Translations under genes and position numbers: made by a program
The notes under the pieces: generated by a model
What the model was told of the DNA's origin: nothing
Database searches by the model: none
What the model saw: only the letters and a program-made list of their open reading frames with translations
Shown here: positions 9,231-10,212 of the stretch, one piece after another
Numbering within the stretch: the stretch's first letter is position 1
Layout: each line of letters begins with the position of its first letter
Origin: a virus
Taxonomy: Duplodnaviria > Heunggongvirae > Uroviricota > Caudoviricetes
Virus record (IMG/VR): IMGVR_UViG_2606217104_000013
Strand: one strand, 5' to 3'
DNA length: 10,212 bases

Positions 9231-9860
9231 TCATACACTTGCTCCTTTCAGCCCAAACTTAGCTTTGATTTCTGCGATCTTCGCCAGAGCCTGTGCACGA
9301 TTTAGAGGTCTACCGCCCATAACAGGAAGTTGTTTTACTGGTTCAGGTATCGTCTCACCACGGTTAATTCGCGCTGTCATACAGGTCAGTTCATCGGCAG
9401 CCTTGCGCCGTAATTCCGCGTCAGTCAGCGCATTGGCCCGCATGTTCTGGTACAGGTTGGTAACCAACCAGTAATGCGCGTTCGATTTCCACGGATAAGA
9501 CTCTGCATCCGGATACAGGCCACGCTTCCGGCAATACTCGTAAACCATATCAACCAGCTCGCTGACGTTTGGCAGCCCGGCGTTAACGGATGCTTCTTCC
9601 CGGCACCATGCAACAAACTGCCCGGGTGATGGCAGAAATGGTCTATTCTGCCGACGGGCAACACGCATTCCGGCGCTCACCTGTTCCATCGTGGTGATCC
9701 CGTTTTCCCGGAAAGCCAGAACCCACTGGCGGCGGATTTCGTTCAGTTCGTTCTGGTCACGATTAGCCAGGCTCGCCGGGAAAGTTGCCAGTAACTGGCT
9801 GAATACACCGTTGATTATCTGCGCTACCTGCTGTACCTGCGGCTTTTCGTCGTACTGTTC
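9231..9860 (-). pseudogene. P: Replication protein P (lambda P-like), 5'-truncated by IS insertion
   Basis: Residues from EQYDEKPQVQQVAQIINGVFSQLL... to ...AKFGLKGASV match lambda P from about residue 25 to the C-terminus. The first ~24 codons and native start are missing; the ORF-track N-terminal 31 residues ([11 protein letters not shown]...) are read-through into IS sequence from a TTG. Confidence 0.85.
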
Positions 9861-10212
9861 TGAACCGCCCCGGGAATCCTGGAGACTAAACTTCCTGAGA
9901 AAGAGGTAAACAGGATGACTAAAAATACTCGTTTTTCCCCTGAAGTCCGTCAACGGGCAGTCCGTATGGTTCTGGAAAGTCAGGGCGAATATGACTCACA
10001 ATGGGCGACAATTTGTTCCATTGCTCCAAAGATTGGCTGTACGCCGGAGACTCTGCGTGTCTGGGTTCGCCAGCATGAGCGGGATACCGGGGGCGGTGAT
10101 GGAGGGCTCACCACCGCTGAACGTCAGCGTCTGAAAGAGCTGGAGTGTGAAAATCGTGAACTGCGCCGCAGTAACGATATCCTTCGCCAGGCTTCCGCTT
10201 ATTTTGCGAAGG
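9861..10212 (+). mobile_element. IS3-family insertion sequence (IS629/IS3411-like), left end, partial (continues beyond the window)
   Basis: Terminal sequence TGAACCGCCCCGGGAATCCTGGAGACTAAACTTCCTGAG begins at 9861 exactly where P homology stops; followed by the transposase OrfA start. Confidence 0.8.
9915..10212 (+). CDS. IS3-family transposase OrfA (helix-turn-helix / leucine-zipper N-terminal protein), 3'-partial
   Basis: ATG 9915 with GAGG 8 nt upstream; [60 protein letters not shown]...[11 protein letters not shown]; open to the window end, so absent from the ORF track. Confidence 0.85.

Follow-up and report, generated by a model that had tools for sequence, protein, structure and literature searches.

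Insertion of an IS element into the replication gene P of a lambdoid prophage is already known in kind, being annotated in many RefSeq genomes, and IS629-type insertions in the prophage genes of EHEC/EPEC-type E. coli are well documented. In Escherichia coli O157:H7 (EC4115, TW14359, SS17 and others) a copy of IS1203/IS629 lies in P of a DLP12-like prophage, where RefSeq annotates two partial “replication protein P” pseudogenes. DLP12 itself is a cryptic prophage of E. coli K-12 that has been degraded by IS elements. IS1203 and IS3411 are isoforms of IS629, a group whose sub-types diverge by 4–5% and whose target-site duplications are 3–4 bp long; in O157:H7, prophages hold 62% of the IS629 copies (PMC3271280). 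An IS-excision enhancer protein can promote excision of IS629-type elements (PMC9943667, PMC9397093).

A laboratory case in the same gene is the lambda P::IS2 mutant 566a of the Hayes laboratory, a replicative-killing-resistant mutant which arose by spontaneous insertion of IS2 at lambda coordinate 39690 (PMC4926192); counting from that coordinate, we place the element at about codon 36 of P. With this insertion the plating efficiency is 0.0002%, against 35–67% for the listed P+ strains, which amounts to essentially no P complementation, and the insertion saves the host from replicative killing on induction of a trapped prophage (PMC4926192). What the 5′ end of P encodes can be read from the 2.66 Å DnaB–lambda P structure: residues 1–29 form domain I, an N-terminal lasso in which M8, V9, F11, D12, Q15, and M16 touch the DnaB docking helix at the ring breach (PMC12661323).

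Gene content and context of the prophage

The window—the whole stretch of 10,212 nucleotides that was analyzed—covers the late and early-right regions of a DLP12-like lambdoid prophage of E. coli, as assigned from the ORF listing and Pfam matches. Its genes run in the order ylcI, bor/iss, Rz, R, S, OmpC-like porin, Q, ylcG, rusA, ybcO, ninE, and ybcN, followed by a HEPN-domain gene, a Bro-N/P22AR_C gene, a VCH_CASS14-like gene and, on the minus strand, P. DLP12 of K-12 presumably carries the same late and nin-region genes (ylcI, bor, Rz/R/S, the ompC-like porin, Q, ylcG and others) and shares rusA, ybcO, ninE, and ybcN as well; we take the window prophage to be much more complete than DLP12 and to hold other cargo between ybcN and P. 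The features outside P that are referred to below are:

2857–3939, plus strand, OmpC-like porin (ORF listing and Pfam)
6222–7018, minus strand, gene for a HEPN-domain protein (138 aa) overlapping a 133-aa ORF that has no Pfam match
7978–8065, minus strand, C4 antisense RNA (Rfam, 82.5 bits)
8090–8162, minus strand, isrK Hfq-binding sRNA (Rfam, 64.1 bits)
8679–9026, plus strand, 115-residue protein of the VCH_CASS14 integron-cassette family (E = 5.7e-20)

From position 471 to position 9860, the window is 99.9% identical, with 7 mismatches and 1 gap over 9391 bases, to a prophage in E. coli O26:H11 FWSEC0001 that adjoins tRNA-Arg and intD and has both O and P intact. The FWSEC0001 prophage bears IS elements of its own: ISCro1 interrupts the gene of the S49 peptidase (head protease), and an IS1203 flanked by a GTC duplication lies between ylcI and bor, at the equivalent of window position 476/477. 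The window lacks this IS1203, so that one IS group has struck sister prophages at different sites.

Several features of the cargo region are recorded here in their own right. The two small RNAs overlap the untrimmed 5′ end of an ORF at 7318–8163, just upstream of the 202-residue Bro-N/P22AR_C antirepressor-like gene. We assume that this arrangement resembles the immI region of P1/P7 and the IsrK-type control of an antirepressor or anti-Q module in Gifsy-1. A direct repeat of about 162 bases (6021–6182 and 8343–8504; 81% identity overall, 90% over a core of about 115 bases) encloses the 133-residue ORF, the HEPN gene, the antirepressor-like gene and both small RNAs, and its two copies may be the borders of a cargo module that was inserted here. 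The HEPN gene and the 133-aa ORF may together form a two-gene toxin–antitoxin or defense cargo of the nin region. The 115-residue gene, which lies a short way downstream of P and runs against the early-right operon, looks like a moron; a lambda-like ren is absent at that place.

The junction of gene P with an IS3-family element

The right end of the window joins the body of P to one end of an insertion sequence, and the features concerned are:

9231–9860, minus strand, 3′ part of P (P′), codons 25–233 and the stop codon, own start codon absent
9231–9953, minus strand, chimeric ORF of 240 codons: 31 antisense-IS codons, then P residues 25–233; TTG start, no ribosome-binding site
9858–9860, no strand assigned, TTC, presumed copy of a 3-bp target-site duplication, the second end of the IS lying outside the window
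9861–9885, plus strand, left terminal inverted repeat TGAACCGCCCCGGGAATCCTGGAGA, beginning 5′-TG and identical to the left end of the complete copy in E. coli YDC107
9915–10211, plus strand, first 99 codons of orfA (HTH_Tnp_1), interrupted by the window end

Alignment of the window with the intact P genes of FWSEC0001 and of HM670 sets the breakpoint between 9860 and 9861. Up to 9860 (…GTCGTACTGTTC) the window equals both intact genes without a difference; beyond it, intact P continues as CGGCATGTT… and the window as TGAACCGCCCCGGGAATCC…. For the minus-strand ORF, the match to lambda P (PDB: 8v9t) has E = 1.9e-135 and 97% identity; residue 32 of the ORF pairs with lambda P residue 25 (E25 of …NNMP|EQYDEK…), which puts the number of missing codons at exactly 24. 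The intact protein reads MKNIAAQMINFDREQMRRIANNMP|EQYDEK…, the bar being the junction point. P′ accordingly has 630 bases, or 209 codons and a stop, and what has been lost includes the ATG and the internal Met23. All 630 bases are identical to intact P of several O26/O103 E. coli, and the Phage_lambda_P domain (PF06992) lies entirely inside P′ (E = 1.1e-61, profile positions 1–162 of 162). The TTC next to the junction is of the length seen at other IS629-type copies, where 3-bp duplications occur as GTC (O26:H11 FWSEC0001) and CAT (the O157:H7 EC4115 clade).

On the other side, 9861–10212 matches 351 of 352 bases of a complete 1310-bp IS3-family copy in E. coli YDC107, and annotated IS3-family transposase genes are found at 99.7% identity, with 296 E. 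coli records at 99% or above. The left and right ends of the YDC107 copy form an inverted repeat in which 23 of 25 positions match, and the annotation of its CDS includes a programmed frameshift and a pseudoknot. That pseudoknot spans IS positions 336–452; Rfam gave none in the window, which covers 352 of the 1310 bases and stops at IS base 352, the frameshift region, orfB, and the right inverted repeat lying beyond 10212. Residues 1–87 of OrfA match HTH_Tnp_1 (PF01527, E = 1.6e-12). The sole difference from the YDC107 copy is T for C at 10146, which changes Arg78 of OrfA to Cys (KELECEN vs. KELEREN). Against the IS1203 copies of O26 and O157 strains the identity is 94–95%, consistent with the spread among IS629 sub-types (PMC3271280). 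[quoted passage not shown] Since the plus strand carries orfA (start at 9915) and P is read from the minus strand, the transposase gene is antisense to P.

The first-pass annotation of this DNA had proposed that homology to P begins abruptly at 9860, at about residue 25; that IS terminal sequence starts at 9861; that the native start and some 24 codons of P are displaced beyond the element; and that the element is of the IS3 family (IS629/IS3411-like). The alignments agree with the first point exactly and with the second to the base, and make the number of missing codons exactly 24. The near-complete match to an entire copy, the terminal repeat and the HTH_Tnp_1 domain uphold the assignment to an IS of that family, and the orientation given for the two genes likewise checks out.

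The event looks recent, since P′ is indistinguishable from intact alleles and the IS part lies one base from an intact copy.

Consequences for gene P

In the intact O26:H11 relative, O and P share four bases (ATGA), the ATG of P lying on the stop codon of O, and the native start of P therefore sits within the 3′ end of O. In the window this ATG is parted from the body of P and the overlap with the O stop codon is gone. Measured by an ATG of its own over the O stop codon and a domain I of residues 1–29, the window does not hold a complete lambda P gene. Of the P protein, P′ corresponds to domains II–IV, and the residues lost are most of domain I.

Little is available to replace the missing start. 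In frame on the P strand there is a TTG at 9953, inside the IS, and then ATGs at residues 82 and 89, so that the TTG is the sole in-frame start before residue 82. It is not preceded by a Shine–Dalgarno sequence (upstream ATACGGACTGCCCG), and a scan of 9000–10212 found no sigma-70-like promoter. As neither a start codon nor a promoter that could credibly take over is present, P is most likely not synthesized.

The course of events that we propose is as follows. The 1310-bp IS would have entered P of a DLP12-like lambdoid E. coli prophage exactly between codons 24 and 25, cutting off the ATG of P, and with it the ATGA overlap on the O stop codon, from the rest of the gene. [quoted passage not shown] Unless P were supplied in trans, the prophage would then be unable to load DnaB at its own origin. 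The junction, the nature of both partners and the lack of start signals are seen in the sequence; the loss of P function and the replication defect are inferred. We consider this reading as a whole (an IS insertion in P, P not made and own replication lost barring P in trans) to be highly likely. Inactivation of P taken by itself also appears likely, because the start has been lost with no usable start or promoter in its place, because the lasso has gone, and because lambda P::IS2 provides a null precedent. The same conclusion, that P is inactivated and that the prophage would not replicate by itself unless complemented, had been drawn when the locus was first annotated, and it fits the lost start and O overlap, the lack of an alternative start, and the P::IS2 null.

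Sequence beyond the element

Both the window and the draft contig that matches it, CYGM01000075.1 (100% identical over window positions 522–10000), stop on the right inside the IS, and the other end of the element is outside both. Both ends of CYGM01000075.1 fall inside the window, at 522 and 10000; as both records stop in the IS on the right, the window is probably an entire short-read contig flanked by repeats. Beyond the IS, gene O and the displaced 5′ part of P may be retained or deleted, and the element itself may be incomplete. A simple insertion predicts a right junction in which the right end of the IS is followed by TTC and CGGCATGTTGTTGG… (P codons 24 to 1) and then runs on into O. 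Neither this right end of the IS with its expected duplication (TTC and CGGCATGTTG…) nor the 72 bases of 5′ P and gene O beyond it turned up in any collection searched. An exact pattern for the left junction and a gapped pattern for the right one had no match in the genome, metagenome, and viral contig collections, nor had the junction query in the phage collection. Among complete E. coli genomes the left-junction query had EC-107 as its only contiguous match and the synthetic right-junction query had none, and no complete RefSeq E. coli genome carries the junction on the P allele of the window. When the neighboring 115-residue protein was looked up instead, it led to ten loci, all ten with an intact 233-residue P. 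The chimeric ORF, used in the same way, led only to a draft contig of 9.5 kb that likewise breaks off in the IS.

It is therefore worth weighing whether the junction marks the endpoint of an IS-mediated deletion or rearrangement, with the 5′ end of P, and perhaps part or all of O and the origin, absent or relocated. In E. coli O80:H26 EC-107 (NZ_CP043217.1), the IS end at the same base of P leads into nested IS copies, P lacks its 5′ end and O is mostly gone; EC1515 and Z1323CEC0004 have IS3-family elements in P with flanking deletions. Of the four other loci examined that have an IS in P, three thus show a deletion next to it, the O157:H7 prophages being the only clean insertion. The termination of both the window and its matching contig within the IS would also fit a deletion. 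Against this, the insertion in the O157:H7 EC4115 clade left both halves of P in place with a 3-bp CAT duplication, and the remainder of the window runs collinear, at 99.9%, with a prophage of O26:H11 in which O and P are intact. We regard a deletion or rearrangement as possible, but less likely than not. It would concern sequence beyond the IS and is compatible with inactivation of P; if it were true, the prophage would be irreversibly replication-dead and not merely interrupted.

Comparison with other insertions in P

Taking the junction again as an insertion that separates P from its start, three known cases can be set beside it. The O157:H7 element belongs to the same isoform group (~95% identical) and likewise hits gene P with its transposase gene antisense to P. 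It differs in lying at another site, where 438 bases remain of 3′ P and 267 of 5′ P; in that both IS ends and the CAT duplication are visible; and in having ren, emrE, and ybcK after P, where the window has its cargo genes. Lambda P::IS2 has an IS3-family element in the 5′ part of P too, about 12 codons downstream of the window junction by our count (~codon 36 vs. 24/25), but the element is IS2 with a 6-bp repeat, and the mutant was deliberately selected in laboratory lambda.

In EC-107, the left end of the IS lies at the identical base of P and in the same orientation as in the window. There, however, the IS itself is broken by another IS after ~254 bases, the deletion takes in the 5′ end of P and most of O, and the backbone differs, with ren and ninB after P. 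The P genes of the two differ at 27 of 630 bases (4.3%) and the IS parts at 15 of 254 (5.9%); the same base in alleles this far apart suggests two independent insertions and not shared descent. Shorter “partial” P proteins of the same 90% cluster were considered as further junction cases and set aside, as they are contig-end truncations with native P sequence.

Two apparently independent hits on one base raise the question of whether P codon 24/25 is a preferred landing site of IS629-type elements or whether IS insertions in P are positively selected. Selection is plausible because a host with a trapped prophage is relieved of both P toxicity and replicative killing once P is inactivated; were this so, IS hits in P would be a recurrent path to prophage domestication rather than random decay. 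With only two cases to argue from, we think either explanation unlikely.

The chimeric ORF and the assembly

The 240-codon ORF at 9231–9953 is held in RefSeq as WP_072184005.1, “replication protein P” (240 aa), which is backed by two NCBI accessions (CTT24165.1 and CUA46291.1) from a pair of contigs, of which the longer has 9479 bases. The name is an annotation artifact, because residues 1–31 come from reading the IS in antisense, and the ORF is probably not a real gene product. Should it be translated, it would yield a P variant with 31 IS-encoded residues in place of the lasso that might still load or bind DnaB. The frame is open and keeps the complete PF06992 domain (lambda P domains II–IV), in the cryo-EM structure just one of the five loader chains has an ordered domain I (PMC12661323), and RefSeq does list the protein. 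That listing, however, is an automatic call which says nothing on expression; the TTG start lacks a Shine–Dalgarno sequence, the overlap with O is lost, the scan of 9000–10212 found no promoter-like site for the ORF, and lambda P::IS2, inserted at a nearby position, is a functional null. A low level of active fusion protein may arise from the TTG, but we rejected a functional fusion as the main explanation on these grounds and consider it very improbable. Apart from flagging WP_072184005.1 as chimeric, the insertion has little significance beyond annotation.

That the junction is an assembly chimera of a P contig and a repeated IS, as might be feared of what looks like a short-read contig with repeats at both ends that stops inside the IS, can be dismissed with near certainty, because the draft contig CYGM01000075.1, from a separate assembly (GCA_001286545.1), has the identical junction and the closed genome of EC-107 has an IS end at the same base of P, and because the fusion protein stands in NCBI under two accessions from two contigs.

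Replication and spread of the prophage

With the IS insertion as the preferred reading, this copy of the prophage has very probably lost its own initiation of replication. The remaining genes of the window have ORFs equal in length to those of the relatives, so no further defect is visible in it. How far the loss of P would be felt by the whole prophage may depend on the host genome: the closest relatives (records with a 100% identical P′) hold 2–5 P-like places per genome, which makes complementation in trans possible, and a predicted replication defect of the whole prophage might be masked by such copies. As an IS-excision enhancer can promote excision of elements of this type, the lesion in P may also be reversible. 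The loss of replication bears on whether the prophage can be induced and spread its cargo, which includes bor/iss, the OmpC-like porin, the HEPN protein, and others.
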